A stretch of DNA of 55,491 nt from Catajapyx aquilonaris (lineage: Eukaryota), in contig KZ538023.1 of assembly GCA_000934665.2 (NCBI GenBank), forward strand, positions 124,001 through 179,491, given 5' to 3'. The notes beneath the pieces were generated by a model. It was not told where the DNA came from, searched no databases, and worked only from the letters and a program-made list of their open reading frames with translations. The translations under genes and the position numbers were made by a program. Positions 1 through 55,194 of the stretch are shown here, piece after piece. The number at the start of each line of letters is the position of its first letter. Position 1 is the stretch's first letter.

Positions 1-11
1 ACGGAGCTTAC

Positions 12-2287
12 CTGATGATGGCAGTTTCCGTGAAGACAAAAGGAAGGCGAACATCTCCGCTCCAGTATCTCAACCACTTCCAGTCCCAACGTCGATTCCA
101 TTTCAGGTATCTTCTCCATGAGTGTTGCTCTGACCGCATCGGCTCCGTGGTAGCCGCTAGCTCCGTTTGCACTGACTCCGCTCTTTCTTACGGCTAATAA
201 TACATCGAGGTTTTGTGTTGCACGTGCGGACCGGTTACCACGTCCGATACGTCCAAAAGACGGCTGCACGCTGAGGATCACAATGTCCTTCAGACGAACA
301 TTCAGTGCATTGCGTACAGCACGTACGAATGACTTCTGATGAGTGAGTATGAATACTTCTGGAGTGATGTCGGCTAGTCGTACAGTAACGCTGTGCTGGA
401 CCATATCTTCAGTAATTAGCTCGACAGCGACTCTTATTGTCTCGTAGGCAGTGTACTTTCCGTCGCTCACCGAAATATTTACAGAGTAACGTCCGACATC
501 TAAGCCGGGTAGTGCGATTATCGTTCCGTCTTCCGGGTCGACTTCAAATAAAGGTATAGCTGGCTCGTCAAGAACCGGTACGACCAGAGAGTACGTCAAG
601 GTGTCATATGCATCCTGATCTGTTGCACGTACTCGTCCAATTATTCCACCTGGGAATTCATCTAGGAAGGCGTTTATAGTCACGTCTAGCGGAGTGACAA
701 TTGGCGGGTACTGCGACTCTTCAATCACACGTACTGTTACATGCGTGTCTGAGGAGAGCGGAGGTGTTCCGTTGTCAAATACCCGTATGTGCAGGTTGTA
801 CTGTTCACGCTGCTTGTGGTTAAACTTTGCGGCCGTCCGGAGCGTTCCGTCTTGCGCGATGCGAAACCATCTTCCTTCATTCCCGTTTACAATATCATAT
901 GTAAATGGCGATGCATTTGGCGGCGCATCGGAATCGCTCACTTGGAATTTCAGTATTGAAAAGCCCAGTGGCTTGTCTTCTTGAACGACAGCGGTGTGGT
1001 TGACTTGAGAGAACATTGGCGCATTGTCGTTAGCGTCGCTAACTTCAACGTTGACAAGCACGGAGCTTGAAAGTGACGGTGTGCCATGATCGTGGGCGTA
1101 CACTTCTAGTACGTAGCTTGAAACCATCTCACGGTCCAGCTGACTAGCAACAGACAGGTAGCCAGTCTCGCTGTCAACTGCAAACTGCGAGTGACGATCG
1201 CCTCGTACCAAAGTGTACGACACCCTTGAGCTGTCGCCTGAATCCACATCGCTCGCCATTACTTGCAGAATCCGGTCGCCAACTTGTGCATCCTCACGCA
1301 CAACCGCGCTGTACGTTGGCTGAGCGAACACTGGCGGGTTGTCATTCGCATCGGTCACTGTGATATTCACAGTCGCATGGTTACTCAATGGCGGTACTCC
1401 CCCGTCCGTAGCCTGCACAGTCAAAAAGTAACTGCGGACCCGCTCGTAATCCAACTGCTTCGCTACCAGAACCACACCGGTCCGCTTGTCAACATCAAAG
1501 TGGCGATGCTCATTTCCGCCAACGATAGAGTACGACACCTCCGCATTGACGCCAGTGTCCTTCGATGTTGCCAGCACCCTTGCGACCTCGCTTCCGACGC
1601 CTGCCAGTTCGGAAACCGTTGCATAGTAATACTTGGAGGCAAACTCCGGAGGATTGTCGTTCACGTCCAGTACAACCACTGTCAATTGTACTGTAGCTGC
1701 CATCTGCGGTGATCCCTGATCTGTCGCTTGCACCGTGAGGTTGTAACTTGCCTGTCGTTCCCTATCCAACGGACGTCCCAGTATGACCACTCCGCTTTCA
1801 GTATCAATTATGAAGTGGTCGTCAGCCGAATCCAGGAAAGCGTACCGGACCTTCCGATTGATCCCGATGTCACGATCATTCGCATGAACCTTTGCGACCA
1901 ACGTCTTGACCTCCCCGTCTTCAGGTATGGCCACGCTGTATCCGCTCGCTGGTGCCACAAACTGCGGTGCGTTGTCATTCACATCCGACACCAGCAGCTC
2001 TATTTCGCACTGACACTCCCATTCCGGCTTCTCTCTGTCTTGCACGTGCGCCACTAGCCGGTACCTATGTCGGTCCTCACGGTCTAACAACCGAGCGGTC
2101 TTCAGGTAGCCCTCGTTCTTGTCCAGCCAGAAGTGATCGGAGCCGGCACCAGTCAGGAAAAACCGCAGACGAGCATTGGGGCCCTCGTCACGATCCGTTG
2201 CTTCGATTGTCGTCACGTATGTTCCGGGATGTGTCGCTTCGGACAGAATGCCTCTGTAGCGTTGCTTCAGGCAATACGGAGGATTGT
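12..2287 (-). CDS. kug: Fat-like cadherin exon (2276 nt): last cadherin repeats, linker and start of Cys-rich region (D)[10 protein letters not shown]...[20 protein letters not shown]
   Basis: Acceptor cttttccag at 2288-2290, donor gtaag at 7-11. Phase 1 to 0. Absent from the ORF track, probably because the frame has no stop before the window edge. Confidence 0.93.
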
Positions 2288-5200
2288 CTGGAAAAGCGTG
2301 AACGTTAGTAATCGGCTCAATAGCAACATGAATAGGTCCTACCGTTAGCGTCCAGAATGTCGATTGTAACGCCGGTTCTCGTAACGAACGTCCCGTCCGT
2401 GGCTGTGACCTCCAAGTCGTAACTGGCCGTGCTTTCTCTGTCCAGATCCCCAGCGACGTAGATCTCTCCAGTCTGCCTGATTTGAAACTGTCCCTGAGGA
2501 TCTCCCTCGGTGATGTGGAAGGAAACGGTGGAAGGCATATCCACATCCTCATCCGTGGTGCTCAGTTGGACCACGACAGTACCAGGCAGAGCATCCTCGT
2601 TCACCGCAGCCACGTAGTGACCATGAGAAAACCGAGTGGGGCTGTCATTGTAGTCGGCAACAGTCACTATAACGGTAGTGGTGGCGGACATCTTGGGAGT
2701 TCCATTGTCGGTGGCCACAACCTCCAGTTCGTACCTACAGAACACATCAGATTAACGGTTTCATTCTAACAATTTTCAATGGCCTTGGGAAGTGGCTTAC
2801 CTGAAGGTCTTCTCACGATCGAGCGGCACGAGAAGGCTGATCCAACCCATGTATGTGTCAATGCTGAACACATTAGCCAGCGTCCCAATTGACTGTCCGA
2901 ATGAGTACCTCACATCACCGTTACTACCTTGGTCCGCATCAGTCGCTACGACTCGCAAAATGGACGTCCCTTCATCTGAATTTTCCGCTACCGTCACCCT
3001 ACAAAGGACATGTGTTAAGTACTTGTCAGTGCGACGTAACGAGCCTAATTACCTGTAGGGATTGCTGTGAAATTGCGGCCGGTTATCGTTTTCATCCAGG
3101 ACTTGCACCCAGACTTCGGCTAATGTGGTCAGCGGTGGGCTTGAATCCGTCTGAGCCGACACAGCAAGAAGGTAGGAGTCGCGGGATTCTCGGTCCAGCC
3201 GTTTCGAGAGGGTCAGTTCGCCGGTTGAGTCCACGCTAAATTGCGGATCCTCTTCGTCATGATCTCGTGAGACGATCCGGTACTTCAAGCTGGCGTTGGA
3301 CTGGTGCCATCCGATCGTGCGGAGCCGTGTTACTACAGTGCCTGGAGGAGATCGTTCCGAGATGAAAAACTTGGCGTCCTTTCGCTCAAACACTGGCGGC
3401 CTGTCCTGCGGTCCCATTATGTACACATGCACCGGTACGTCCGAGTGCAATGACGGGCTTCCCTTATCCTGAGCTCGCACGAAGAACTGGAACACTTGGT
3501 TGCCTGCAAATTAAAACACATGTTTATACGTTGCAATATTGACACTTACGCAGCGGTTACTCACTGAATTCTAATGCAGTTCGGTTTAAGAAAAGCTCTC
3601 CAGTCTTTTTGTTGACGTTAAACAGGTCGATTCTTCTGCTCACATTGCCCTCGTAGATTGTGTACTCGATTTGTGCCGCTTTGTCCGTGTCCGCATCAGT
3701 CGCTTTCAACTGCAAAACATAATTTTCGTCACTCGTGAATCGCTAACGATCACAACCGACATACCTTGAGAAATGTGGTTCCGACAGTGACGTTCCCGTA
3801 AATGTTGGCCCTGTACTCCTTCAGCTGGAATATCGGAGTGTTGTCATTCATGTCGGCCACTTTCACCTGGACAGCCGTGAACCCTAGCCTCCCGCCTGAA
3901 TCTGCTGCAACAACAGGAACCTCGTACATCCTTCTTGCCTCCCTGTCGAGGCTTTTCCTCAGCATCAACTCTCCGCTGGTCGCATTAATCACAAACAACC
4001 GCTTCATGGCCTCGGATGGGATTGAATACGTCACATGCCCATAGTCTCCTCGGTCGTGATCGGTGGCCGTCACTTTCGTAATCCGAGTGCCTGGCGGAGC
4101 ATTTTCAGGACACGCAACCTCGAACAGAGCACGTGGAAATTGCGGCGAGTGCCTGTTGGCGCTTGTGACTTCGACACGTGCCCATGTGAAGCTGGTGTAC
4201 ACTCCGTCAGTCACCGAGAGGTTCAGCGTGTGAGAAGGAGCTTCGCCAAACTTGTGCAGGTTCACAAGACGGATAGTACCAGTCCGTGGCTCTATGGAGA
4301 ATGTTTGCTGGTCGTTTCCGCCAACTATGGTGTACGTAAGCTGCGGTTGGTCCTCCTCATCTGGGTCGGAAGCCCGCACCACTGTGACAAACTGATCTCG
4401 TATGGCACTCTCGGACAGGACGCAAGAGTAGGAAGGCTGCTCGAACTTTGGCGGGTTATCATTTGTGTCCAACACTGCAAAGTAGGTTTTAAAATGAGCA
4501 CAATTAAAGCAATTATGGTCGAATTACTCACCTTCAATCCAGACGTGAGCAGTACTGGACAAGGATGGAATGCCTAAATCTGCCGCCACCACCGTAAAAT
4601 GATGGGTCTTCTGATGCTCGTGGTCTAACGACCGCTTCAGAAATATCACGCCTTCGGACGCATCGATATGGAAATATTCCGACGCATTGCTTGAATCCAT
4701 CTGGATCATGTATCGGAATTCTCGGTTGATCCCTGAAATGCATACTAGTTATGCCAGCTCCTGATATTGGTGTGATCATACTTCCTAATGCCAATCGATC
4801 TAACCTGTGTCGTTGTCCGCAGCTTCAACCCGCAAGACCGAAGTGCCGAATGGAGTTGCTTCAGAGACTGACGCATTGTACGCATCCTGGGTGAACTCCG
4901 GAGGGCTGTCGTTAACGTCCTCGACGACAATGCTGACCATGACTTCAGCCGAAGCTCCAGTAACCGAATCCATCGCCTGGATGTTAAGCTGGTAGTGGTT
5001 CTTCAGCTCGTAGTCCAGGTTGTCCACCACGTTGATAACGCCTCGAATAATTTGGTACAGGGTACAGGTGACAGGCGGATTTGGGGTGGAAGTTTGCGCA
5101 GTTTGGAAAGGTTTTAAAAAAGCAGGAGAAGCAGTGGAGACGCTTCCCACACTACTCACCTACTCACGTAAAAATATGTACAAAAAAAACGCCTGGTTTC

Positions 5201-8200
5201 AACAGGCAAACGAAAAATAAAGGAACGGCTGGCCTGGGGAAATGGAGCATGCAAGCCAAGTCAGACCGGACAGACTGCTCAGTCTTAATAGTCCGCAAGT
5301 AACGCCAATCCGATACTTACAGAGGCGGAAAATATTTTTGAACAAATTGCGACAGAGTTGCCGTGATCATTAACATGAAGAATTTCGCATCGTACGTTCT
5401 CCTGCGTCAGACACGTTTCATTACCATTAAGTTCCCTTACATAATATCCACCTTTATATAAGTGTGACAGAGTGTACGACTGAGCAATCCTGCCTTGCAG
5501 AGCGTAAGTCACAACAAAACTGGGTGCAAATACTTCACTTCTCCACACGCAAAAATTTCAAAAACAAAGTGTGGAAAGAAAGTAGGCCAAATCAACACAA
5601 AATTTTTTTTTAAAAAAAGCAACACAAGGTGCGATAAATGTGCACTTTTTTTTTTCTGTACAATGGCGAATGCAATTTAGTCACACAATTTCTGTGTAGG
5701 CAGAGAGACCTTATGTGGGATCGAAAAAGATCAAGCGTGCAAATAAGCAGTGTTAAAGAGAGAGAGCGATAGTTAAAAACGCATGCGACTTGTCTAATCA
5801 AACATGTTAGATGAGCCAGGGGCAGAGTGAAGAGCAGCAGCGGATTTTTATACATTTCCCTTTTATATTTTTTACGTAAAAACCCAATAATTAAAATGTC
5901 CAGATTTTTTTTTTTTTACATATTGTAAGCGACACCATAATAATAAAGAAGAAAAAAAGTGATGCTAGGAAAATACTCACAAGGACCATTGTTACTGTCA
6001 GGGGCTGTTGCGTCAGAAAAAAGAACCGGAGTTTGGAGGGGGGGGGGAAAAAGGGATAGAGAAAAATACATTTGTAAAAATTTGTGAATTTCGGTTCGGG
6101 TGGGGAAAAAGAGGCCTACGAGTTTGCTCAACAAAGACAAAGAGAAAAAATTATATTTACAGCTGGAAAAATGCAACACAGGGCCGTTGACATATTTATT
6201 TTTAAAAAATATATGAAAAAAAAGCCTCCAGCTGCGTAATTTTTCGCTTTGACTTTTTTCTTTTCTTTTTTTTGAACAAACTTCATGCATATTTCCTATT
6301 TTTGCGCCCTGACTAAATCTTTGAGGAAATTCGGAGGGGGGGAGGGCAGAACGAGCAGGAGAGATTGGTATAAAAGTCCACTTGCACCTTCTAAATTAGT
6401 TCCGCTGCTTTTTGTTAATCCACCATCTGCCATTAGTTTATATGTATAAAAAAATAAAAGGGATGGGTAATATATAAAAAAGAATAATCAGGGAAGCAGC
6501 ATCTCACAGTCTGGTCTCATTCTCTTTCCTGTCTAAAAATAACATGTCTGCCAACAATTACTTTTTTTTTCAATAAAGCAGCTGGAGGCAAGCGGCCCTG
6601 CTGTGGGTGTTTTAGAATATGCCACTTTCCTCCTATTCTATCTAAAACAGGCCGTTTTTTTTTTTTGGTCACATAAAAAAACTGTCACACAAAAATCATG
6701 CGTGACTATCGAGATGGCTCACCAGTGTTGAAGTCGACTGCGAACTCTTCATACTCATTTCCGTGCACGATGCTGTAAATCAGCTTCCGTCCGAGTGGCG
6801 ACTGGGCCTCGATTGTTATAATTGGCGTGTACGAAGGAACGTTTTCGGGTACGGACGCCGAATAGAACTGCTTGTCGAAAGTGGGCATCGAACGGTCAAT
6901 TACTTTCACCTTTACGGTCACTTCCGTTGAGCACGGCGTTACACCTGGAAACAAAATTTTGGATGTACAGACACTTACACATTAGTTACGTACTGACACA
7001 TACGCATTAGTTACGTACTGATGCTTACACATTAGTTACATACACATACACTAATGGCAGGTTTCACCAAGCAGCATTTACATGTAAGCGATTTGATCGG
7101 AAAATCCAAACGATCCAAACTTTTGATTGTTGTCAACAATGGTTGCTATAGCAATTCTTGTTAAAACCGAGGTTGTTGAACCCACGTTGAACCCGACCTA
7201 AATCAATCAGATTACTAACCTCCGTCATAGGCAGCAACTATGAGCTCGTAATCCTTGTGGTGTCCTTCCAGACTCTGCTTAAGCGAGACCTCGCCGGTCT
7301 TGCGGCTGACTTTGAATAGCTCACCGTTGCCTCGGACCAACTCGTATCTGACCTCCCCGTTCTCGTCTTTATCCAGGTCGATTGCGTGAACTTTGGCAAC
7401 GACCTCTCCTTTTCTGGCTCCCACTGAGACCACGGCGTAGTAGGGCAGGTTGACGAAACTGGGGCAGTTGTCGTTGATGTCCGTTACCGATACTTCCACA
7501 ACGACGTGGGCCAGCCTCGGTTTCTCCTGTCCACCTTCCAAGCTCCTGGCCTCGACGACTAGCTCGTACTTTGATTGCGCCTCACGATCAAACCGCTTCC
7601 CTGTTGTCTTAAGAACACCTGAGGTGCGTCCCATCTGGAACTTGTCAGTCGGGTTTAGTACGGAGAAGTGGACATGTTCGTTGAGGGAGCTTCCCAACAC
7701 GTTAACCACCGTTACAGGTACGATCTTGGTTGAGTTTTCCAGTACACTTGCAAAGTAACGGTCTACCGGAAAGGTCAGACCTGAGTTGCTCGTCTTCTCC
7801 ACGCTGATCCGTACTCGCGCTGAGCCAGAATGCTTTCCATCAGTCGCCTGAACCTGCAGAATGTACACTGCCTCCAGCCCATCAGCTTCAGACACTGTGA
7901 CTATCCCGGAGCGAGAATCAACTCCGAATCTGCCCTCAGGGTCACCACCCATGACCTGGTATTCGATGGTGCTGCCCGAATCTGGATCAGTTGCCTCCAC
8001 TTGAATAACCTCAACTCCCTTGAAAGTCGGCAGGTAAAGAGTTGCATTGTATTCGTTCATTGTGAATTTCGGAGGGCAGTCATTGACATCCAAGACCTCA
8101 ATCCTGACCCGTGCTGTAGTTTCGGATGATAGCCTGGGCTTCCCTGAGTCGGAAACTCGTACGCTGAACTCGTACCTCGGCTGCTTCTCGTGATCTAACG

Positions 8201-11200
8201 GCATAACGCTACGGATAGCACCAGTGTTGGAGTCGATGTGAAAGAATCGCCTTGGTGTCACCTCCACAATGTGATAGCTGAGAAGCGAGTTGAGCTCTGC
8301 GTCGTGATCTTCCGCCTTGATCACCAGTGGCCTTGATGTGCTGGTCATCACTAGAGATCCGATGGAGGCAGACTCGCTGATGGTTCCATTGTACACCTCT
8401 TGAAGGAAGCGAGGAGCATTGTCGTTCTGATCCAAAACGTGGACCACCACATTGCAAGATGCCTTCGCACCAGCCTGTAAAAAAGATGTGTTACATTGCG
8501 AATCACTACGGAACGGCATAATTTGTCCTCACCATGTTGCTAGCTTGTAGCGTAAGGTTGTAGAGCTTATGTGCCTCGTAGTCCAGAGGACACTTGGTGG
8601 TAATAACTCCAGTGGACGGATTGGCGAAGAAGGCATCGTGGTCATTACCTCCAACCACTTCATAATGGAGTGATGATGTTGCTCTGGCTTCAACATGCGC
8701 CACAAATGCACCCAGCGGGCGGTTCTCGTAGATCTCCGTGGCGTACTCCTTCCTGGCGAATCTCGGTGGTGCGTCGTCTGCCATCATCACCTGAACATGA
8801 ACTGGGATGCTTGCAGTACGAGCCACCTGCCCATGATCGCTTGCTCTTACAGTCAGCGTGTACTCGGGTGCAGCCCCCATGTCCAATTCACGAGCCACGC
8901 GAACCGTGCCCAAAGCCGAGTCGATCGAGAATGCATTACCCACATTGCCTGACACAATTGTGTATGTCACACGTCCATTTTCACCGCGGTCACGGTCAAC
9001 AGCAAACACACGCGCGACCGCAGTTCCAATGGCAGCACTCTCATGTACCCGTGCTTGAATGACCTCCGATGTGAATCTCGGTGCATGATCATTGTGATCT
9101 TGAACGCTAACCAACAACCGGGCATAGCTCCGTTGCGGCGGCGTCCCTTCGTCTTTAGCCATTATGGTCAAAACATGTTCTCTCAAGGTCTCCCGATCCA
9201 ATCTTTGCGCCAATCGCACTATTCCCTCACTCTGGTCCACCGAGAAGGCAGTCATTGACGAGGGACTGCGGGACGCATGGATGGAATAAAAGACCCGCTT
9301 GTCATGGTCACGGTCGGTGGCCCACACACGAGAAACCTCAGTGCCGACCTCCGCTTCCTCGCTCACTTCCGCATAGTACATGGACTCTGTAAACTCCGGA
9401 CGATGGTCGTTCATATCCAGCACATCAATCAGCAACTGTCGGACAAAAGGAAATCAATTGAACGTAACAGTATCGCAACAAAACAACATGGAAACTGGGT
9501 CATGTACATGCAAATTGAGATATACACCAAAAGCTGCCAATATATATTTTCCCCCTGGCGAACTTCACCATGTACGGCCTTATCACCTGGACACATCGAT
9601 ATTCAATTTTGTTTATCAGGCCAGTAAGGAGCTGCTCTCATTTCCTACCGAACCCCCAACCAGTTTGAAAGATAACCTGTGCAGCTTCTCTCCCAACGAA
9701 CGTCTATTGGTTTCCCATCAGGACAGGACTTTTCGATTATGTAGGCCAAGTACGCTCATTTTTATCTCTAGGGGACACCCCGGGTAATCTTACGGCAAGG
9801 GGCTGGCAATTAGGACGGCTGCTTACCCTGCTTCCAAATGAGCCCCATTAACCTCTCACTCGTCCTCTTTTACTCCACCCTCCTTGTCACTTTTTTTTTT
9901 CCACTTCTTTTGACCCCCACGGAAAAATGTGAGGGATGAAGAAGCTTCATTTGCATCTCTCCACCCCCTTCTCATCATTTGCAGGGAAAAAAGGGGGGAA
10001 CGAGAAAAAGAAGGAAAGAAAGAATGCAGCTCGTAGTTAATGCGGCCCAAGCTGAGGCGTACTTCTCACTTGCAAATAATTATTATCAGCATTAGACCCT
10101 AATGGCCGCACATCCTAATCAAGCCGTCTGGAACATCAGTGGGAAGTTTTCTTGGGTAGGACCTAAGGGGGGAGGGGGAGGCTACTGTAGGCTCATTAGT
10201 GGGCCTCCTACTTCACCGAACCTTCACCAACACTTGGATCAAACTACTAAAACCATAAATCTCGGGCTTAAAAGGCCGCCGCATTAGCCGGCCTCCCCCC
10301 GAAAAAGACGAGGCCTTTTTTTTTTTTTAAAGGTTCTCTCCCCCTCCCCTGCTCATCAAGCTGTCTTGCCCACGCAATTAAACGTATCCCCCTCTCCCCT
10401 AATGATTATGTAACAGGAAGAAAACTACATGGCAATTTGCTGGAAAAGCTTGTGCACATGGAAACTTCATTAATAAAATCCGCTGTCTGACAATATTTCA
10501 CCGCAGAATATATGGGTACACACTTTTCCCTGCCGCTTTTAAAGCACTAATCTGCGAAGATGTAGCAGCCATTTCCATTTTACAGTTGCAGGTGCCATGC
10601 GTTTTAAAAGCGTGTGAAATAATTAAACGCAGGGGCATTGTGCAAATAATAATAGATTTTCATGCCCAATTATGAAGCGTGATTTTTGGCTGTTAGTTTT
10701 ATGCAACCAGATTATAATCCACTTTTGTCGATATTTTGAGTGCCAATACGTAGAGCAGTGACAACTGAACGAAATAACAGCAATTAATGTATGACATATG
10801 ACAGTATATAATTATTATGGAGTATTAATAATGACCAGTTACGCTGACATTCTTCCGCACAAATAAATTGCATTGTGTATAAAATTACAACCAAATGTTG
10901 GAACGATGCGGTCAGTTTAGGTTAATTAAAACGCAATGCTCTGGTTTGCCCCAAAGCCTTAATTGTTCTAACTATATTACAACTGTCGGTTTAGGCTTGT
11001 AAAATGTGATGCTTTTGACGAGCTAAGCGAGTTACATACAATGTTCCCAGACAGAAAGTGGCGTTCCAGGTGGCATGAATACAGAATGCAAAAAGAAAAA
11101 AAAAAAAACTTCCCTTATTATATTACGCTCGTAAGAGCAGAGGAACTTTAGGAAGGAAGGTTCCCTGGGTCTAGTGTCGCACATGTAGGGAGTGCAAAGG

Positions 11201-14200
11201 CTTTTATGGCTGGTCGTTTGGTGGTGGGGGATGCTGGGGAGGCAAAATATGGGCAGCTGTAATGAGTATCGGTGTTTATAGTACCTGCATGCGGGCTTGG
11301 TGGGGTCCATCCGTGGCAGCCAGGGTTAGGTTGTAGCTCGGGCAAGTTTCCCAGTCCAGCTTTCTAGCCAGGTACAAGCTGCCCGTGTCCCTCCGCATCG
11401 CAAACACTGATCCCTCATTACCTCCTGCAAAGGGAAAGAAGGTGTTAATCACATTGGTAACTCTCAATATTTGTCAAGCGCCTATCGTATTGACGGTGGT
11501 ATGCAATATTATAATTAATAATTATGTCCTGATGTTAACTAGTATTCTGGTAATGACCCAACATTCTAGTGTAGTATTAGGGTGTCATTCACATGGGTGT
11601 CAGCCTAAACAGTGTCATTACCAGCGATGTAACTGATGCTTGATTGATGTCGTTCAGCGGTGGGTGGAGTGTAGTTAAATGCCATTTAATGGTAAGCTGT
11701 CATTGCCATTCAAACGTGTGTAATAACACTACTGATAATGTTACTTGACCGCTCCTAAAATTGCACTTTAACCAAATAAGTGCACTTACATGCTGTCTAA
11801 TTCAGTCGTTTTGGTTGTTACAATTTTAATTAGTCATATAGTATGTTTTAATAAATTACTAAAGAGCGGACTCACCGATGATGTCGTACCACAGCATGTC
11901 ATCGTCATCATCCGTTGCTTGGACCAAAAGCACAAAGTGACCCACAGGGTCATTCTCAGTGACATCCAATCGACGAGAAGTCTCCTTGAAGTACGGAGGC
12001 CTGTTGGAGCTATCCTCCGGGACACCTTTAATCTCCAGAGCAATTCTGGCCGTGGAGTTTCTTGGAGGCTGGCCTTTGTCCTTAGCCATCACCTACAAGA
12101 AAAAAAAACCACCAAAATAATAGACTTGATAAATCCAATCTATAGTCACAAGGTGCTGGAAAAAAAAAACATCCACCCTAAATTTTCCCCCCTCTCCAGC
12201 AGCATCCGGTTATTATTTTCTTACAAACGACTTTCTTGGGGGAAGATGCTGCGGAAGATGCAAAAAATAACAATTCCTCCGGGTAGTATTTCCCAGCCTC
12301 GTCCGCATGACAAGCTAACAGCATTTTCCTGGAGAAATACGTCTCTCTCTCGGAGTAAGAATGCCCAAAATTATGATCCGCCCCCCTATTTCTTCCTCAG
12401 TATGACAACACACAAAACCAAGAAAGCGAAAGAAACTTGGAAGAAAAAACATCCGAATGATTTTCACCTGTATAGAACTTACCTGCAGTTCAAATTCCTT
12501 TCCAGCTCGTAGTGTCCTATGGCAATAAATTTCTCCAGTTCTTGGCTGAATCTTGAATGGACTTCGACCCTTCAGACTGCTCAGGCTGTACTCAATCTCA
12601 CCATTGGGACCGCTGTCCAGGTCAAATGCCACCACCTGTGACAATCTCACATTTTAATCATCAAGAAGAAATCATACCGCAATTAATTTTTTTGATGGGT
12701 ACAAAAAAATATCAGCAACTCAGGTTTTCACCTCGACAAAATGGCGATGTTTTTTTTCGTTGCGAATTCACAAGAGGATTGCAAAAAAAAAATCGACGGT
12801 TCGATTAACGAGGATGTAATTTGAAAGGGAAGGCCCTCAGGTCATTAACGAAGGCTGCCGAATTGCAGAACAGAACCTTGTACACATCGGACAGTCGCCA
12901 AAAAAAAAAATCCTTGCATAATCAACTCGATGCAGAAATATACACACAGAAAAAAATATGAAAAAAGGGGTACAATTTTTTTGGGAGGGTCCAACAGATT
13001 CCGGTGCCTGCAATTTGGAAGCGAATGCGTAATTAATTAATAGGAGGAGCCACCCACGGGAATTATTGCGAGCCAAAACGGGGATTTTGCAGACTTTTCC
13101 AGCTACAAAATACATAATGTCCTTTCGCGTACCCGTCCCCCCCAAAAAAATTTCAAACGCTTTTTATTTTCTGTGCAATTTGTCAAGAGTTATTTACATG
13201 AACTTGATTGCTCCAAGAGTTTTTTTTCCCCATATCAAATAAGGTGGGCTTGAATGACAGAAAAGAAAGAAGCTTTGTGTGGAAAAAAGCTGAGCTGCAG
13301 TGCTTTGTCTGCTTTTCCTACTATATAAAAAAATTTACATACAACACACTCCCCCCCACACATAGGACAAGTAAATCGTGCACCAAAACAAGTAGCAAAC
13401 TGCAACTAAACAAATCACATGCACTCGGACTAACAAACGTACAACAAGGGCATGCTAACTACAAAACACACACACACACACACAAAAAAAAGCAAGGAAC
13501 AGTGGGTGTAGGGTAGGTTCCACTAAAAAAAAGTTGCTGTTCACCATCACATAACACACACAGAAAACACCCAAACTGGAGGACCAAACACAACAACCAA
13601 AAGACACGCTTTTTTTTTGGGGGGGGGGGATGGGGGATTCTATCCGAAGCGTATTAAAAAACCACCAAAAAAAAGGGAAGTTTAGACTAAAATCTAGTTG
13701 GTGGCAAGACCAAGAAGATTTTTTAAAAAACTCTTCTTTTCCAGAGTCTTGTCGCCCTGAACTTTGCTTTCAACAAAGCTGATGAGCAAAGGGGTGCAAG
13801 TGAAGGGTTGGCCATAGTCTATATAACTTATGTACAGAGAATAAGCAAATCGGTGAACGAAACTAAAGGCAGATGGACCGCTCGAAAAAAGTGAAAAATT
13901 CTGCTCAAAATATGGAGTGACATTTTCTGATATACCGTAACATTGAAACCGAAGAAAATGAAAATAGCTCACTTATGAAATCATATGCTCTATTTACACA
14001 TATTTACAGATATTTCTGTAGGGGGGGTATATAAAATGGGCTATAAAATTAACAATGATGAGCTAACAAATAATTTTTGCATCTATGTGCAAATTCTCTA
14101 GGAGTTAAGAAACATTTTGTGAAACCAAACAATGCATAATATTATGCAGTAATTCAAACAAAATAATGTTGGTTCGTAAAAAGTTTGTTTAAATGAACAA

Positions 14201-17200
14201 TATTTGTCACGTTGTATCGACTTTTCGCTGTAATGACACGTTCGTAGCTCCAACTTAAAAAAATTGTTCACAAAACTAAAAAGTTACATGCTAGATGGAG
14301 GGGAAAATTGATTCGCATGCAGCATAATTACTTTTTTGTCTGATTGCAGCGAATATCACTCAAATTGAGCCGAAATGTCACTTCAGGAGCACATGTGCAG
14401 ATCAATTCGCTCCAAATCTTTTACAATTGCTAATTGCGGATTAAATACACGCACTGATGGGCTCACACTAGTTCGCTAACGAAATTAATTCATCAGTTAG
14501 CTCAATTATTCAAATTTGTGCGCACCTCTTTGCTATTTAAAAAAATGTAGGTGAAACTAAGAATTTAATTAAAAGTGGAACTTTTGCGTATATTTTGGGT
14601 CATAATATGGTGGGTTATTAAATCGTTATGAAATATAAATTAAATCCAAATTTAAATTACTTCAACATTTAAAAAATCACATATTAATTACAAAATTTAA
14701 ATATTACATATCATTACAAAACGAAAAACGCCTGATATTTAAATTATGCGAAAATGTGTTACTTTTTATATTTTGTAATTCACTTGGAATAATTTAAACG
14801 TAAATATTCCAAATTAATTACAAAATGTAAATAGTGACACATTTTCACATAATTTAAATATCAGGCTACTAATTTATTTACTAAATGTAAATATTGCAAA
14901 AAAAATTATTTTACAAAAATGGACAAATTACATTATTACTCAAAATTTAGCTCATTTGTTCAACATAATGTGTGCTCTTTATCATGTGCGGTACTGTATA
15001 TATTTGCAGAAACAGAGCCTTTAGTTTCGTTTATCCGACTTTTTGAGCTCAAACACGGCCAACCCTTGGTGCAAAAAAGACTACGCAAAATGCGTGATCT
15101 GGCCGAACAAAGCGTGCTGCTCCACAAAACAAAATTTTTCCCCCATTTTCATTAATCTCCTCCCCCATAATAAGACATGTTATTGTCACAATTATCTTCA
15201 CCATCCCATCCTTCTTGGTATTGCCCCCATGGTATTTTTTTATATGATGTCCTCCAGTTTTTTGTGATGTGTTTCCTGTCACCGTGCGACTTTGATTTTC
15301 CGTCAATTTTTGGCTTACCCTGAGAAGCGGGTCCCCAGTCACCGCAGAATCCGGGTCTAGAGATTCCCAGAGCGTGCTGCCACTGGGAATATTCTCTAGG
15401 GGGGACTCTAGATCTAGCTCCTCCGTCTCATTCTATAAAAAGGGGGAGCCAAGAGATAGAAAGAAAAAAATATATAAAAAAATATAAATACAAAAAAAAG
15501 AGACGCAATAATTGGTCACTGCCAATTATTCTCTGAACAATTTTGTGTATTGCTCAAATTTAAAAAGCCCCCTCACCAACATACACCACATAAAAGCGTA
15601 TAGCAAAGCACAAGGATTTGTTAATGTAAACCTGTGACAGTTTGTGCGAAGGTTGCCCCGTTATATTGAACAGGGCATGCAAATTGTTTACTCCCAAGAA
15701 AGAAAAAGAACCATCAAGGGACTGACAGTGGTCTCGGTTTTTTCGAAAACCACAAAAACCTGCACCAGTTTTACAGCTTAAGTGCAAATTAGTGGGACAT
15801 TTTCCCTTGCTCTTTATTTTTTGTTGCAAAAAAAAGAGGGTAGATGGTTAATGTATGAGTGTGCGCATGTTGTGAGAGACGTGGAAAAACTGAGAGAGGG
15901 TATAGTATTTTCCCTCCAGTACCTCCCACGCCAGAAAAACTTATAAACTCAAAGCTTCACACGCGACATATGCCAGGTGCTTCTGACAGACTGGGCCAAA
16001 CTAACCCCTAAACGCAGCTATTTATACCTATTTTTTTTTTTTTAAAGAAGCTTACATTTTGTATATATACACTGCCCTTTTTTGACTCACCCGCCACCAT
16101 TGATTTCCTTTTTAACTCATTTGTTTACATCCTTCTTCCTCTAAATGTGCTGAGTTGTAGACTAGTCAAAAAACATGATTGGCTCGCGTGATTCGAGTAT
16201 ACTTTTTCTCATTGGGCAGGGGGAAATGAGGCTGACAAACACGATACGACACGACACGATTCTAGTAACATTGTACAACAACGACATTGATTGGCCGGTC
16301 GTGTCGTGTCGTGTCGTGTCGTGTCGTGTCGTGTCGTATATGGTAGACACAGACATTTTTTCCCCGATGAGAAAAGGTCTAAAATGAGTATTGATCTGAA
16401 GAATTTTGCTCTCAACTTGGATTAGTCCATCTCCGATAAATCGATGGCCAGGCGATTAAGTGTCCTCCATTACATATTCAAACAACGGGTCGTAAGTGCC
16501 TGGCCCCTGTATACACACTATATCTTCCGGCACCTAATTGGACCTGGGTTTTTTTTCCCCCACAGCAACATGTAACCTCCGCGGAAATAAATCTTCGGGT
16601 GTGAATATCAGGTTTTGCAGCATCCAACATTACAACATTGGAACGATAATCTGGGCGCATCCAAACAACCCCCCAAAAAAAACCATTGATTCATTGCGAA
16701 TTAATGGCGACTGGTCTAGGGGGGCTGTAGACTAGCCTCTGTGTTAATGAGCCTGTTTCCGCCTCGTCACTCAACCTGTCTGATATACGAGCCACGTAAA
16801 TTACGTAACATTATCGCCCCCCCCAAAAAAAACACAAGTACGTATACGAAAATCCGTTTGTTACATTTGCAAGGCAGCAATTTATTTAAACATGGTAGGA
16901 CATCGGATGTGACGTCGCCTCAAAAGGAAACCAGAAGCCTCCCAAGGTATCCGCAGACTAAAACCGCGAAATGCTTCATATAGACACTCAGGAATTTCAG
17001 GACATCCTATATACCTTTAAAAACATCGAAAGACATCCATTGTTAAACCCGTGCATCGGAAACCGCCCCCCCAGGTAATGAGGATGTGGTAATGTTGATG
17101 CGGGCCTTAAACGTGAAGATCGATTTGGAGGTTTTTCCTCTGCAGCCATCCTCTGCACCAGAAAAAGAAAAAAAGGAAAAAAAAGAAGGAACCACCCTCC

Positions 17201-20200
17201 AAAAAAATGGGCGAAAAACACTCTTCCTTTTTCCCATGGCCCCATTACGATGACCCACCTTTTTTTCTGCCAAAGTCGGGGCCATTTTTATTTCATTTCT
17301 TCGTTTGAAAAATCCTCCCGTTGAATATCACGCCATACACACAAGGACACAATGGACCGGTTCACAATAAACGTAGATCTTTTCGCGTGCATTTCGGAAA
17401 AAATTTGGCGAATATTCGGACCTCTAAAGGTTTGGGTCGTTATACGTCACGCTATGTGACGGAACGTTACACAGCACGTCACTTTTAAAATCCAAATAAT
17501 GAGGAAATAAGCTTATTAATATTAATATTATTTACAGCAATTAATATTTACACAGTGAAACACTGTTGCATCCTCCTCCCACCCACCAGAGGCGCTGCCT
17601 ACATCCACTCCGCATGCGCAGAATATGGGCCAATAAGAAGCGTCGCGGTAACAATATGCGGCGGTCCAAACATGCCAGCTACGATTTTAATATTAAATAT
17701 TGTGCGATTAGTAAGTTCTTGGCGCCGATTTATGTCTACCCACTTTTTTCACCCTTCAAAAAGCTAAGTGTCAGTGTGAGAAATGACCTCAGAATTCATC
17801 CTGTCGAGAAGAAGAAAAAAAACACCCCTTCCCTCGTTTCTTAATTAAGCAAACGGGTAGACCGTTTATTAATTAATAGCCCTCAACTGATAATCCAACG
17901 GGAATCCTCCGAGTTTAGGGTATGGAGGCAGCAGCAGCAGCACCAACTAATCGGAAAATTAATTATCGCCGTTTTATCTACCTCCCCAACGTTTCCGGCT
18001 TCTTCCGATCGATGGATGGCCCCAGAGGTGAGCTTCTCCCCACTTTATATAGCCCCCAGAAACTCCTTTAAGAAACACTTTACCCTCATGAATTAGTTTC
18101 AATTGCACTTGCCTCCGCTTGCAACTGGAATCAAATATTTAATCACGGATTAAGACTAATAGAGCGCATCGTTTCGCACTTACCGCGGTCTTACTGCAGA
18201 TATAATCCAAATGGTGCCGCAGTCTCTCTCTCTTTTTTTATTCGAAAGAGGAGGGGGGGCCATCTGTCACTAATTAAGCCTCCCCAAAATGCAGTTAATT
18301 AATTTGGTGGCACCTCCCTCTGATTAGCGTCATCTCTGGACTTCGCCCGGCTCACAATTAGCCTAATCAGAACCCTCAGGACCCCCCTCTCAGTAAAGGT
18401 CATCAAACCTAGGTGGGCATATGATGATTACTTCTCTGACAATCCCAACTAATGTTCCGGACGCTTCAGACGTCCACAGGCTGTCAAGTCTACTAATAGA
18501 CCTTCGCTTTTTTTTCTACCGAAACTTGCACGGAAGAAACTGGCCACAAACAGTGCTACCTTCCCAAAGTTTTTTTCTTCTTCTCGTCTTCTCCTTGATT
18601 ACTTCGTTCCAGCTCGACCCATGCTCCCTACCGTAATTGGGTGCCACCAATGACCTTTTCAACACTAAGCTACAGTACGTATAATCAGTATGACAGTGAC
18701 AATCAAACAACTTTAATGAGATTGCCCGCCGATTTACCACCTAGTACGATTTTTCACGTATAGATGGCGCATATTCCCTCTGCATACTCCTGCCATCATG
18801 TGAGAGATCGCGGTACTATCAGGTCGGACAAACATCAGACGGAGAGAATAAGCACATTAGGTAACTAAGCTGTGTGACGTCAACGCGGACATATCCGCGT
18901 CGTTCAAAACTGCATTAAAAATGGCCGCCACCAGCATCGCAATTTTGGTTAATATCCCCCTGCCAATATTATGAATGTGTTATCTGACCTGATACACAGG
19001 GTGGTCCATCCCTTTCCTGGATGTTTGGGGCAGCCTCAGCTTATAGAAGTGTTCCAGGAAGAGCGGGCTGTGGTCATTCACGTCGTCCACTATAACCACA
19101 ACTCGGCTGCTGGAGCTCAGTGGCGGGTTGCCCTCGTCGCTCACAGTCACCTGCACATAGAAAAAAGACACACACACTCAGAAAAAAAAATTCAGGACTA
19201 AATGTATTCTTTGGTCAATATTGGAAAATCCGGTCGGTTTGCCGCTAAGCCGGATTCCAGATCAGTGCTGGTGACATCAAGTTTTTTTTTGCCACTGCCC
19301 CATTGTGGGTGGGGTGATAGGTTGTAGAAATTATCCCATGGGATTCATCAAAAAGCCGGCCCGCAATGTGCATTAATAAGCCGAGAATCCGGGCGTCCGG
19401 GAATGAAGTAGTAGCCTCCAATAATTTACACACACAAAAAAAGCAGCAAAATGAAATGCTGGGGGCTGCCAATGTAATTTGTACGAAGATGCACTTTCAT
19501 CACACGTTTCTCTTTGAAGACAGAAAAAAAAATGCGGGACAAAGGTAAGGTGACATTTTCCACGTTGTTTGCCCCTCTGGAATGTCAATAGGAAAATGTC
19601 ATTCATAGAAAAAGGAAGCTTTCTTGCGGCCTTTTGCGTCGACGCACCTTCACAAAAAAAAAACAACAAGGGGGGGCTTAAATATCAATGAAGGTACTTT
19701 CACCTTTGGCCTTTCCACCACCTATAAATAATTCACGTCCAACCCTTACACACACACACACACNNNNNNNNNNNNNNNNNNNNNNNNNNNNNNNNNNNNN
19801 NNNNNNNNNNNNNNNNNNNNNNNNNNNNNNNNNNNNNNNNNNNNNNNNNNNNNNNNCCCCCCCCCCCCCCCCCCGACCAGTTTTTCCTACATATCCGCGG
19901 AGTTCCTCGAGAAACTTTCGCAGGTAATATGCATCAGAGTCCCCGGCTATCATTCCCGCCTTGTTTTCGTTCCCCGAAAATTAAATTACTTGCAATCCCT
20001 CTCTGCATACAAACTCTCTGGACTTTATTACAGCTGGTCTACGGTTAATTTACCCGGCATACACACAGCTAGAGAGAGAGAACCTGGTATCTAATCAATA
20101 CCGCTAAAAGACCGGATTTTGCACTGCTCGTTTGCGAAATGGACATATCGACTTGATATATTTCGGCTTATCTAATGCAACATTGCGAGGGAAAAAAGGT

Positions 20201-23200
20201 GACGACATTGGATTTGGACATGGAAAAAGGTCTTCTTTTGCATTTTTCTTTTTTTTCCAGGGAAGGGCACTGCGGAACACACACAAAAAAATAACGTTTT
20301 CTTCCGGGCTTGGAAAGCGTGTGATGAGGCGAGAAAGGCCTTTATGGAGCACAAGTGGAGGCCTTCTTTTTTTCAGGGTTCTTCGTCTTGAAATTCTTCG
20401 GACGAGAGCCACTCAATCCTACCCACCCACCACCCACATTTTTTTCTTCTTCTCCTCTCTTCACCTTCGAAGCCTCCAAACATCCGATGCGAAATTCGAT
20501 GCCCGGCACCCTTGGCTAGCCCCGGATCCCATTCCCCAAAATTGGCCATTTTCGGAAAGGGCTCTCTGAAGGAAGTGAAACAGAATCGCATCGGAATTGG
20601 CGAGCAATACACAGGAGGAGGAGAAGAAGAAAAAAAATGCGATATCCTTCCTTTCTGATGTGTTGTACCATTTATGACACACCTTGTATCTTGCTCATTT
20701 ATTTCAGCTCCTTGTCGAGGACGATTGATTCCTGAGTAGGTCCGGATGAGATGTTGCAAGTGACAGCTGACTCCGAAGCACTTCCACTTCCACATCTTAA
20801 TGACGTGTCAAAGCGACTGGCTGCACCTGGAGATAGCTGGCTGCAGATGACACCCGGATCAAAAGGAAACGGGGCAGAAGCCCCTTTTGACATGTTCCTT
20901 GCACTATCCTGCCAGAATTATTACTCCGGAATTTGACATGCTGAAGCCCCAAGGTGTGTCTATCGAGCATTAGATGTTGATTCGTCAGTTTTAAAGACAC
21001 TTGAACCCTGCTTTAAGCAGTGTATGTTACGCTGAGGTCGACTCTGCTCCCCAAAAAAATATGAATACACAACGGCATGAGAAGGATATAAAAGGGGCGG
21101 GCGTCCAATATATCCCCTGGAGGCGTCTTTTAGAGAGAGAATAAGGGAAGGAAGGAAGAAGGGAATCCAGCCTTGATGGACTCAATCTTCTTCTTCTTTT
21201 CCAACCCTCTTCCTCTCTTTTTTTTTCCAACCCCCCCAGTTTGGGAAGCAGCTTTTTCCCTCGGAATACCAACTCAGCCCACCCAAACTTTCATTGCATC
21301 TCGATAAACTTCCTCGGTCCGTACTGCTTCACTCACTCAGTTTACTCCTCTTCCAACTTTCGTGGGAGGCTGGTTCACACCATGGTGCACACCAGCTGTT
21401 TGCTTTTACTTGCTCGAGCACAGCACCAACTTTTAACAGCTAAAAAACTCCTCAGACGCCAATCTATCTGTAACTATTGAACGTGCGTGTCGGTTGTTGT
21501 TTTTTGGATAGTTCGTGACGGAATATGTGACCTATCCCAATATTTTAACGCATGCAGGACACACCTTTAGTAAACGGGGCCATTCACCTTGCCAACATTG
21601 CCCGCGGGACTGTCCTCATAGTACCACATCTCGTGGATAGATGGCGGCCACTCTCTCTGCACACTGCTGCCACTCAGGTGCAGTGGTACTACATGCACGT
21701 TGGTGATAAGTTACCGCGAGGCGGTTTTATAAACGACCTGTGGTGCTGTAATTGAGTCGACGTGCGTAAACAGTTCAGTGAGTGATCAACTGGATTGGGT
21801 GACTTATCGCTGGCTGAAGGGTTGAGCCAATGAATAAGGGTGATGGTGAGAGGTTCCGTTTAGAGAGAGAGGGGGGGGGGCGGTAATTGGTAGGTGCGGT
21901 TGCATGTCATTACTCGCGATGCAATTACCCATTCACTTGTGTTGTCATGTCACGGAAAAAGAGTCGGTACCTCGTGCAGTATACGACACGTGTGTGTGCT
22001 TAGTGGTTTAAAATCAGACCCATGCAAATAATTTTCGTCCTTCCTTCCTGCCGGTTCGGGATGGTGGGGCCATTAAGAAAATGGCGGGTGTCATTACTCA
22101 CCTTAATACGTGACAATCTTGCGGTGCCATCGCTCTCTGATACCAATCTGAGTTCACATGCACGGAAGAACTTCCGAAGTCTTTGTGCACACATATACCC
22201 CACCCACGGTACCAGTATTTGCAAATCAGATAACAATGTTTCCACCCGGATGATCCCCTTGCCTGATGATCCATGCTCTTTTTTTTTTTTGCAGTTTTCT
22301 CCAGGAGTGAATTTGCGACGTGGCACACACACCCCTCCAAAAAAAAAAAAAAAAATCGCAGACATTCTCCGGTTCCTTCCTTGAAGCAGCCATCAAGAAA
22401 ATGGCGGGCGTGTGCTCTCGTGGGAGAGATTTGACAAAGGCGCGCCGGAAAGACACCCGGATCCGGGGATTTCGCACAGGACGTTATTACCAACCAACCT
22501 CCCCTGGCCAACTTCCACTCCGGAAAATATGGCTGGAGGAAGAAGGAGAGGTTGAGGGGGGGGGGGGGGTTTCCTCCCTTTTGCTTTTACGATTATAGTT
22601 ATTGTTCATTGCGGGCGCCACGCTTGGAGATTTTCGGATGGAGGGGGGCCATGGATTGCGTGTGGTGGTCATACGTATGCTATTACCCACAGAATACTAG
22701 TGCATTACATTTCGAGGCGGCTTGGGGGATTTTCGGAGGGGGAAAAGAGGGCCACGCATCATATTCAATGGGTTGGATTTATAAACGACGTGAGCCCATG
22801 GAAATGTGTGCATTATGGGATTTTTTATTATTTTTTCAAGTACGATTGTACGAAGATCTGACCTAATCGACACATTACGGTTGGCTCTATTGGTCCAGTG
22901 CTTGACCGATATTGACTATCACCCTGCTCCTCTCACTCGGGTCCAGAATCCGATTACAGCTGGGGAAAAGTGGCCAAAATAGCACGTGAATGGGCCATCA
23001 GACTGTCCTGAAGTAGATTTGATCCGACTGCCACCGACATCTCCAGGCCATTCACTCAAAACACTTGCCATCTGCCGGAAAGGTCCTGGTAGCTTCACAT
23101 AGCGTATTAAGAGGCCAGAAAATTATTAATTAAATTTATCACACAATTAAAGAGGCAAAACCGCTCAAATAAGACTGAAAGGCCAATTCCAACAATAAGA

Positions 23201-26200
23201 GCTATGCATGATTTATCTTACATAATAAAGAAGAAAGTTTGTATGTCCGCGGGCTACCTAACTCACTTTCAGACTACTGAGAGTTCTGAAACTTGGCACA
23301 CTGATGGCTGATTGAGGTACAAGTCACAAAATCGAACTATTATAGTCCTAATGCCCAAAGGATTTGATATAGTGTTAGCATATTATAATTATGTGCAACT
23401 AATTTCCTGCACATGAATATTTTAATTGCACATTTGCTATCGGGAAATTCGGCTCTTTGGCATGTGCCAGTGTATACTTTCATTCCATATATTACCTTCG
23501 ATTCGTCCCTGCTATCCAATTACGCGGAAGTACAAACCTATAGAATCAACATGCCGACAAAGCGACGTTTGTCTCATTATGAAGCGCCATTTCCTTGATA
23601 TGAAAACCGCTCCTTGTTTGTGCCCAGTGTATCAACAACCCATTATCCCTTTGTAACTTATCTGCAGGCAAATATTGTAATAAGGAAAATCAACCTAGTT
23701 ATTATACTCATCTATTGAAACAGCCCTCCTATCGAATATGATAAAAAGGTCCTACACATTTAATCCACCCTGAGTACAAGATGTGCTCCCAATATTTGAA
23801 TCCATGCAAAAAAAAACAACAACAGCCTGTGACAATCTTTTTCGTTGAAAAATCTCTCGGTAGGAAGGGGGGGTTGAATATGGTAACGAACCCGCCCCCA
23901 CCCACAGCACACAAGCCGCCCCGGGGCCTGCATCCGTCCGGGGGACGTTTATTGGATTGGGGCCTGAGTCTGCTGATTTGTTTTGGCAACGGGAAATGGG
24001 GAGGAAAAGTCAAGCTTGCAAACTAGGTTATGCCTTTCCGCTCACAGGCACAAATCAAAAGCCCTGGTCCTACCCACCCTAAAATTTCCTAAAAACTTGC
24101 ACCCTCCAGACGTATACACGTGTGTCCACAAGTGGCTCTTCACATACGGATTTTTCCCACCACCAAAGTGGCGCCTTCATTTTTTTGTACCAAGCTTTCT
24201 ATCCTTAGAAGCTGCCACCAACCTTATCCACAACAGACGCGCCTTTTCCCTAGGGGCAGCCCCTGGGCCAACCCCACCTTCTCCCAAAATCTCCACCAAA
24301 TTCAATCTCAACATCCGGATTTTTTTTCCCCCTCATCTCTTTTTCTTTCTTCCCCCTTCCAGCTTCTGCCACGTACCAGAGACATTCAAAGCCACTTTGA
24401 TCAAATCTGGCTTATAAGAGAGGAATGTCCTATACCTCCGGATTCATCTTACGGATTCCCCCAAAAAAAGGACGCATATATCCGGAAGTACCCGTCTTTT
24501 GATCTCCTTGAAAAATTGGTTGTCCTAAATGTCAGCTCCCCCACGTGTATTGACGACTGGCTAAAATAGACCGCACGACAAGGCCGCCTGCCTTATCTCG
24601 AATCATACTTTTTATACCTTAAAAACCTCCCGGACAAAAAAAATAACAAAAAGTAGGGAGGTTCTATATAAGGACTAATGAGTCCGGGCGTTTCCAAAAC
24701 GACACTCGTAAATGATGTAAGGTAGGTAAAATGTGCGCACGAGCCGAGGCTTTACCTTCCGAGATATTCCGTCAAATGGGCCCTAAATGACAAGAAGCCT
24801 GCATAATGTAGACGTATGCCTTTTTTCCTGCACTAGGCTGCCCCCCCCCCCCCCCCAAAAAAAAAACCTTCTCGCTTTTTATATATAAATTTTTTTCGGA
24901 GAAAAGGAAAAGGAAAAAGGCCGCTATGTGTAGTAAAAGTGGTGGGATTAGGGTTCCGAGCAGAGAAACACCGATACCAGATGCTAATGCCTGGCCTTAA
25001 TGCAGCCTTCCATATGCAAACGCCAGACTCGGTGTCTCCGAGAAAAGATGGGGCTCTGAACACTCTGCTAACAGTAGCAACAAAAAAAAAATGGGTATTG
25101 ATTTGGGTAGAACATTTAAAAAAAAAAAAAAAGTAAAGAGGAAAAAGTTTACCTCGAGGATGTGCTCCGGTTGCGCTTCTCGGTCCAGCTTCCGATTGGT
25201 GGTGCTGATAAGACCTGGGGAAAGAAATTGGATCGTAAGTCAAGCTAGTGTAGAAAAAAACAGGCAGCTCCGACTTACGTAGATCCGGACTTACGTATAA
25301 AAATGCGTAAGTCGATTTTTACGTAACTCGGAGCGATCTATAATATTAAAATTCATCTATAGACTGTAAATTCTGCACATTTCTTCGCTTGTGTTGTATA
25401 GAGTTGCTAAACTTAAGCAAGTTGAGATCAGCCAATCAGAACGAGCTTGCAGTTGCTTCAGCCAATACACGTTTGAGATTCGGATCCACCAATCAGAGAC
25501 CCAACAGGTTCTCCCCGCCAATATTTTTTTTAATAAAGCGACTCGTCATACAAAAATGCTTTCTATTTATGAGGCTCTACATTTTCCGTTTTTGGGGTAG
25601 GTTTTATGAGGGATCCGGAGCTGGAATGTCCGTCGCATGAGAGACTCGAGCAATCAGCGTGGAAATGCTCACTGGCTAGAAAATTGCTGCTGCTTCTGCC
25701 CCCCCAACCCCTGTTCCTAATTCTAGCCCACCCCACTTCCAACTCTATCGCTATGCCAGGCCACGAGGGACTTTCAAGAAACGATTATGCCTCCCTTTTA
25801 ATAGCCTGCCCTAAATCCGAGCCCCGCAAATATTGGCCACGTCGCAACTTTTTTTTTGTTGCATAAAAACCCAATTAAAATATGCAGAGTGCTTCTTTTT
25901 TTTACTTAAAAAAAACAACATTGGAGATTCTTCCTCTTTTTTCTTGTTTCTTTGAAGAAATTTTTCTAACGTGGCTTAGATAGGTGTGAGCGAGGCTCCA
26001 AAATTTCTCTGGGCCTCATAATTGTAAATTCCACGCCTCCCCCAGCCTGCAAAGCTTCGAGCCCCAGCAAGAAGTCGTAAAAATGATTCAGGACCTTCGG
26101 GCGAAGAGCTTGGGACGAAAAAACGACGTATCTGCACCGAGACGATGGAGGGGGAAAAAAAGTACACGTACAAAAACTGTGAGAGTGTGCTGCTCACGTA

Positions 26201-55012: not shown

Positions 55013-55194
55013 AAGACCGTATATGTTAAGACACGCAACTGTCCCTTGAAACGTGAAAGTGGTTTGTCAGTGCCATCTAGTGAGTGCGGAGTTGACCCCC
55101 ACTCCACCAGCGTTGGGCCACCAGGTTGGGCGGCCTGGTCTGGCCTGCTGCTTCCCTACCCCGTCTCTGCCCTTGGTCCTTGCTTGGTCTCTGC

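Follow-up and report, generated by a model that had tools for sequence, protein, structure and literature searches.

In the window, by which we mean the whole stretch of 55,491 nucleotides analysed here (Catajapyx aquilonaris assembly GCA_000934665.2, contig KZ538023.1, positions 124,001 to 179,491), the gene of a Fat-like/Kugelei atypical cadherin carries a 24-nt microexon that is almost certainly real and in frame, and that is very probably optional in Catajapyx aquilonaris, as it is in its relatives. This old, optional exon would give the Fat-like/Kugelei ectodomain two forms, and its inclusion is predicted to lengthen the D-E loop of cadherin repeat 21 and to swap a Gly for a Cys. Tissue-regulated inclusion would most likely alter how the ectodomain bends, or what surface it offers for binding, at a calcium-free hinge, a reading to which, taken as a whole, we assign a probability of about 60%.

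The microexon, its host gene and its splice signals

The features of the window on which the argument rests are as follows.

1..34625, minus strand: Fat-like/Kugelei atypical cadherin gene (FAT1/2/3-type), with exons corresponding to about residues 1153-3874 of the locust protein P0292
6723..6944, minus strand: upstream coding exon, ending in phase 1 with the donor GTGAGC; it encodes the end of repeat 20, the non-canonical linker IDRSMP and repeat 21 as far as DFNT, its first half
6005..6115, minus strand: 3′ splice site region of the microexon, with CAG, pyrimidine tracts, a 109-nt AG exclusion zone and yUnAy words at -12, -74 and -84
6004->5981, minus strand: cassette microexon of 24 nt, phase 1/1, which completes an Ala codon and then encodes PDSNNGP and the first base of a Cys codon
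5975..5980, minus strand: 5′ splice site GTGAGT, with T at -1
5725..5974, minus strand: downstream intron, whose 250 nt here contain 8 YGCY words, a weak post-hoc lead to a Muscleblind-type regulator
4803..5041, minus strand: downstream coding exon, encoding the second half of repeat 21 and the start of repeat 22

The tblastn alignment revealed that the host gene is collinear with residues 1153-4624 of P0292, its remaining 3′ end lying past the window start (L023). The exons neighbouring the microexon encode cadherin repeats. With a best identity of 61% to locust, the host protein groups with arthropod Fat-like proteins in a tree that left out Fat4/Ft. In this tree (FastTree, 32 sequences, 1,836 columns), which also left out any myriapod, remipede, malacostracan or wingless hexapod, the window sequence branches outside the winged insects included (support 0.998), closer to them than Daphnia does (0.893). 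When the repeats were counted with a home-made HMM, the microexon came to lie in repeat 21 out of 34 in the locust protein, and the count gave the same position in octopus and in a FAT1-type protein of a vertebrate; one locust repeat is split there by another alternative exon.

Read from the minus strand, the acceptor side of the microexon is ...TTTTTTCTGACGCAACAG (CAG) and the donor side is GTGAGT; the surrounding introns measure 718 nt upstream and 939 nt downstream. At 24 nt, the exon lies under the ceiling of 27-30 nt that defines a microexon. Translation of both joins showed that inclusion and skipping are each in frame and stop-free, the skip join giving AVDFNTGVINVVD, that is, AVDFNT-G-VINVVD. 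The preliminary description of this DNA had proposed an in-frame 24-nt microexon without a stop, and the two translations, together with the conservation of peptide and DNA described below, bear it out. The 109-nt AG-free zone before the exon is the longest among the 10 acceptors examined, the 9 others, all of this gene, ranging from 10 to 99 nt. The upper end of this range belongs to the downstream exon, whose acceptor (5042-5044, minus strand) is an unusual GAG with a poor pyrimidine tract adjoining and a 99-nt AG-free zone; its counterpart in the metagenome locus L011 is TAG.

These splice signals had been called textbook, which goes too far: the last exon base is a T where the consensus before a donor is G; a G at -1 would make a stronger donor. 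The CTGAC word, put forward earlier as a branch-like motif, is probably not the branch point, as its A lies only 9 nt from the exon and branch points usually lie further away; the yUnAy words at -74 and -84 are better candidates. In a scan for a loose YAG-3n(9-51 nt)-GTRAG pattern, 39,343 nt of intron DNA from elsewhere in the gene gave 10 occurrences, and the microexon's own 1,681-nt intron gave 4. The splice-signal pattern by itself is thus modest and not far over chance, and what lifts the microexon above chance is its conservation in both peptide and DNA. The remaining three occurrences in that intron (starts 6528, 5479 and 5192) were rejected as exons: two contain a stop in phase 1, and none matches a homologue insert.

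The window holds several further features. At 15432-15319 (minus strand) lies a 114-nt phase-0 exon encoding 38 acidic residues, with a TAG acceptor after an 84-nt AG-free zone and the donor GTAAGC; an optional acidic insert like it is found in repeat 12 of Schistocerca, Tribolium, Aedes and Bombus isoforms, and the exon gave no Pfam match. Three copies of a 25-nt unit (6965-7044) occupy the intron upstream of the exon preceding the microexon, and seven tandem copies of an 87-nt unit, with 95% matches, span 52205-52813. An 86-nt unit is present in two copies (46244-46409 and about 28990-29390), and the frames 46151-46396 and 29117-29386 have one 14-residue word in common, which suggests a dispersed repeat. 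At 55096-55491 (plus strand) an open frame runs out of the window; it encodes an N-terminal RNase H domain of transposase type (PF21787), which scores over the cut-off.

Conservation of the peptide and of the exon bases

The homologue set comprised 557 proteins, 329 of them spanning the junction. The junction peptide, for which a search of arthropod proteomes had been suggested at the outset as a check, has letter-for-letter matches in insect homologues. The insert APDSNNGPC is identical in 45 of the 329, and related inserts occur in 79 more. Altogether 124 proteins have a 7-9-residue insert, 191 have G only, 9 have GA or GAI and 5 are irregular models; the sample is redundant and biased, so that the counts cannot be read as frequencies, and the 191 G-only rows may include other cadherin repeats. 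Of the 120 top-ranking matches, out of 704 of full length, 53 have 9 residues between the exons, 3 have 8 and 64 have G only, in a survey biased by a search seeded with the inclusion form and with clusters for expansion picked by hand. Annelids, brachiopods, priapulids, onychophorans and myriapods are unsampled in the set, and a Tubulanus-seeded search added only 2 proteins.

The exact junction peptide is present in bees, sawflies, beetles, whitefly, damselfly, stick insect and locusts. The chelicerate inserts read DPGHNNGPC, DPAHSNGPC and EQRLNAEPC, that of Daphnia AHNSENGPC, those of cephalopods DMEVLGPC and DMNVLGPC, and those of nemerteans DMTKFGPC and DMGKLGPC. The spiralian and arthropod inserts have no more in common than their position, their phase and the GPC end. 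Pairs of models with and without the insert occur within single species, namely Aedes aegypti, Schistocerca gregaria, Tribolium madens and Bombus fervidus among insects, Tachypleus, Ornithodoros, Oedothorax and Limulus among chelicerates, and Octopus sinensis and Lineus longissimus (10 with, 2 without) among spiralians. Assembled proteins of 4,000 residues also exist in both forms (P0295 with the insert, P0128 and P0296 without). The microexon is present in RefSeq isoform models of relatives, which are products of automatic annotation, and RefSeq isoforms generally rest on RNA reads. Two hemipteran gene models run through the exon into the donor (GPCEY), as does the window's own frame. Optional inserts are also seen in repeat 33, where 5 residues (KNSLV) in Octopus and 10 residues in the spider Oedothorax follow ...AVQ/IVQ at the same place (P0261/P0260 and P0316/P0315); repeat 33 is a possible second deep or recurrent microexon site.

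No insert was found in the deuterostome models examined, which covered vertebrates, hagfish, lamprey, one amphioxus, Antedon (0 of 6) and Glandiceps (0 of 5). Also without the insert are the Lepeophtheirus models (8), those of a stink-bug cluster (7), Lottia and Argopecten X4, where the absence may be a loss or an annotation gap. In Drosophila erecta an isoform retaining the intron gains only 20 residues (60 nt); since a 60-nt intron is too short for the exon and two introns, the microexon seems to have been lost there.

We searched metagenome DNA with the exon as pattern, degenerate at silent positions, and found 14 loci, every one of which has CAG before the exon and GTGAGTAT after it. The exon is identical to that of the window at 24 of 24 positions in two loci (L002 and L011) and at 23 of 24 in the other 12; judged by their flanks, the 14 loci represent 5 distinct sequences, which fall into 2 types. 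Against these 23-24 identities in 24, bins of the flanking intron match the window at only 2-14 of 20 positions, and conservation of the flanking intron, which the preliminary description had named as a check, did not appear: the introns are unalignable between window and metagenome loci. L011 holds both neighbouring exons, at 65% and 68% amino-acid identity (about 65% as DNA), L002 holds the upstream one, and the other 12 loci have neither exon within the available DNA. In the neighbouring exons, L011 and the window use the same codon at only 13 of the 50 four-fold sites and at 21 of the 45 two-fold ones; the chance of all 8 microexon codons being identical is accordingly about 2e-4 for this one pair, with codons treated as independent. 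The identity at silent positions points to a constraint on the bases themselves, most simply splicing signals, and this one pair thus suggests that the exon's own bases act as such signals.

Given that the loose signal pattern recurs about once per 4 kb in the host-gene introns, the exon might be a chance splice-like sequence; this is extremely improbable, and to judge from the peptide, identical in many insects, and the DNA, 23-24 of 24 identical amid unalignable introns, conservation has already refuted it. It is also unlikely that this species includes the exon constitutively, or that a tolerant loop gained its exon independently in arthropods and in spiralians. Skipping preserves the frame and restores the ancestral Gly, and both forms are modelled in each major clade with several isoforms, which argues against constitutive inclusion. 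Separate origins would account for the lengths of 24 and 21 nt and for the first five residues, which differ between the clades, but position, phase and GPC end are identical, and a 3-nt length difference falls within the criterion for one ancestral exon used in the 2026 preprint 10.64898/2026.09.05.749416. We therefore favour a single origin: the 24-nt exon of arthropods and the 21-nt exon of cephalopods and nemerteans probably descend from one exon of the protostome ancestor, and losses such as that in Drosophila would have followed.

The loop, the cysteine, the linker and the proposed switch

Structure prediction with AlphaFold2 was performed on locust repeats 20-22 from shallow alignments (19 and 24 rows; pTM 0.69 and 0.65). 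The cadherin fold is kept in both the inclusion model (pLDDT 89.3) and the skip model (90.5). In the inclusion model, strand D comprises residues 153-156 and strand E residues 168-172, the latter beginning at the Cys, and the loop block has a pLDDT of about 75. Inclusion thus makes the modelled D-E loop 8 residues longer and puts a Cys where a conserved Gly stands at the start of strand E; for the hinge angle the locust models are unreliable. A fold search with the inclusion model returned generic cadherin tandem repeats, the best being human CELSR1 EC4-7 (E 9.4e-32), and no solved Fat-like repeat 20-22 was among the matches listed.

By cadherin topology, the D-E loop should sit at the end of the repeat that faces the preceding linker, so inclusion would most likely affect the bend or the surface of the hinge. 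An alignment of 24 proteins, from FAT1/2/3 to octopus, revealed that the junction of repeats 20 and 21 has none of the DxNDN, DxD, PE and LDRE motifs, of which DxNDN and DxD bind calcium; the linker variants read IDRSMP, MNKAMP and ITKATP, with the loop QAESP. The calcium-free linkers of DN-/DE-cadherin, Fat4 and Dachsous bend, as reviewed in PMC8325961, where Jin 2012 and Tsukasaki 2014 are cited, and the 20-21 linker is like them in its lack of calcium motifs. No report of a microexon beside a calcium-free cadherin hinge was found in the literature searched.

The point of the exon might instead be the Cys itself, an unpaired extracellular residue that would form a disulfide-linked cis-dimer of the Fat-like protein or a link to a partner. 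The last residue is Cys in 23 of the 26 distinct inserts, Ser in the other 3 (Adelges, Cylas and P0390) and Gly in none, even though a G at -1 would preserve the Gly and strengthen the donor, and repeat 21 in the window has no Cys besides that of the insert. The variants are related, so these are not 26 independent events, and the T at -1 could be kept as a weak donor instead of for the Cys. The three Ser-ending variants speak against the disulfide, as does the model, in which the Cys begins strand E and may be partly buried. Moreover, many insects have additional Cys residues, both in repeat 20 and between repeats 21 and 22, in the linker, so the free-thiol count is not constant among them. 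We consider a disulfide doubtful, and a fuller version, in which a protostome-ancestral, tissue-switched microexon would set ectodomain shape or covalent pairing through the loop and the free Cys at the hinge, rather unlikely.

As to how the switch would be thrown, a neural programme is the prior for microexons, and we regard it as evenly balanced for this one. The eMIC domain of Srrm234 may switch the exon on in neurons, as it does fly and mammalian neural microexons. The genome encodes this domain above the Pfam cut-off (31.1 bits against 27):

G000:C584:80185-81808: eMIC/SRRM_C domain of Srrm234, split over two exons (L016 and L017)

The size and frame of the exon fit such control, and fly kug has a different eMIC exon. 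According to PMC8797185 (section 10), eMIC targets are marked by an extended AG-free zone, by UGC close to the acceptor and by a CUAAY branch point. The AG exclusion zone of the window agrees with the first, but those of the insect-type loci reach just 24-39 nt. UGC was not found near the acceptor, the nearest being at -171 in the window and at -49 or -55 in the other loci, which leaves none within 170 nt upstream in the window or within 45 nt in the insect-type loci. CUAAY is missing from the 250 nt upstream in the window and occurs once in one of the five other loci scanned. Furthermore, the exon is included in 10 of 12 Lineus and 14 of 15 Octopus cluster models, so its inclusion may be broad. 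Control by eMIC is therefore a tentative possibility. Binding of a Muscleblind-type protein downstream, which would promote inclusion in muscle and nerve independently of eMIC, seems improbable to us. YGCY words within 250 nt are commoner downstream than upstream in 6 of 6 sequences (8 against 0 in the window, 5 against 2 in L011 and 6-7 against 1-2 in the L003-type), and at least 8 are reached by 1.7% of 705 real intron windows of the host gene. This excess is post hoc (one of 9 motifs, on 2 sides), its p values against dinucleotide shuffles are 0.05-0.45, L011 against its own introns gives 0.16, and two other donors of the host gene have 5 YGCY each. The Rbfox word UGCAUG is absent within 250 nt on either side in 6 of 6 sequences. 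The disulfide, eMIC and Muscleblind proposals are not mutually exclusive, and each may be a rival or an add-on to the reading that we prefer, a regulated cassette acting on the calcium-free hinge.

Known systems and significance

The exon is not unknown to databases, as it stands in automatic RefSeq models of many relatives; what makes it notable is its depth, its silent-site identity, the Gly-to-Cys swap and its apparent loss in the fly. The closest systems are RefSeq pairs of insects, named "fat-like cadherin-related tumor suppressor homolog" or "FAT atypical cadherin kugelei". Examples are Schistocerca gregaria XP_049837413.1 (X1) and XP_049837416.1 (X3), and Aedes aegypti XP_021704617.1 and XP_021704619.1; they are like the window in gene, position and phase and give forms with and without an identical or near-identical peptide. 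These pairs are database models only, whereas the window adds a genome that branches outside the sampled winged insects; no functional or regulatory study of them was found in the literature searched. Searches on microexons, Fat2, kugelei and protocadherin Fat, thin on subscription journals, found no paper on this exon.

In spiralians, Protocadherin Fat 1 of Octopus sinensis (XP_036364306.1, X1, against XP_036364308.1, X4) and of Lineus longissimus (XP_064636193.1, X1, against XP_064636204.1, X11) has an optional insert that lies at the same site in repeat 21, replaces the Gly and has the GPC end. Known from protein models, these inserts differ from that of the window in adding 7 residues rather than 8 and in reading DMEVL or DMGKL in place of APDSNN.

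The fly kug gene has a 30-nt exon, DmeEX0008375, that is eMIC-dependent and pan-neuronal according to Table S2 of PMC8797185. It is like the exon of the window in being a short, frame-keeping exon of the same gene, and it was rejected as its homologue: the primers given in the paper flank residue ~4600 of D. erecta Kug, in the cytoplasmic tail, and since they translate to words around a 10-residue tail insert, DmeEX0008375 is another exon. The window's gene has no break at the matching site. The D. erecta tail insert itself (P0511, residues 4616-4626) follows xxNT, replaces a Gly and ends in Cys, as the exon of the window does.

The importance of the exon is tempered by its automatic annotation in many relatives and by conserved arthropod microexons being common; a point against the reading that we prefer is that flies and vertebrates manage without the exon. 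On the other side, an 8-residue switch that occurs in nature and has been retained over such a time next to a calcium-free linker would mark an ectodomain site that matters. For fly Fat2, PMC11269957 describes ligands as not identified and the ectodomain as difficult to dissect.

The 2026 preprint infers only two neural microexons to be ancestral to bilaterians, those of APBB1/2/3 (6 nt) and MADD (9 nt) (10.64898/2026.09.05.749416, section 9). The main text of that work does not mention kug, and its supplementary datasets may include this exon with the gains of insects or arthropods. The APBB1/2/3 and MADD microexons are like the exon of the window in being very short, in frame and kept across phyla; they differ in being shown to be neural and in occurring in deuterostomes, from whose examined models the window-type exon is absent. 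With only two such exons inferred, a microexon common to arthropods, cephalopods and nemerteans would be a rare deep case. If the proposed history is true, it would be among the oldest conserved cassette microexons known, as an extracellular one that was overlooked because Drosophila and vertebrates lack it.
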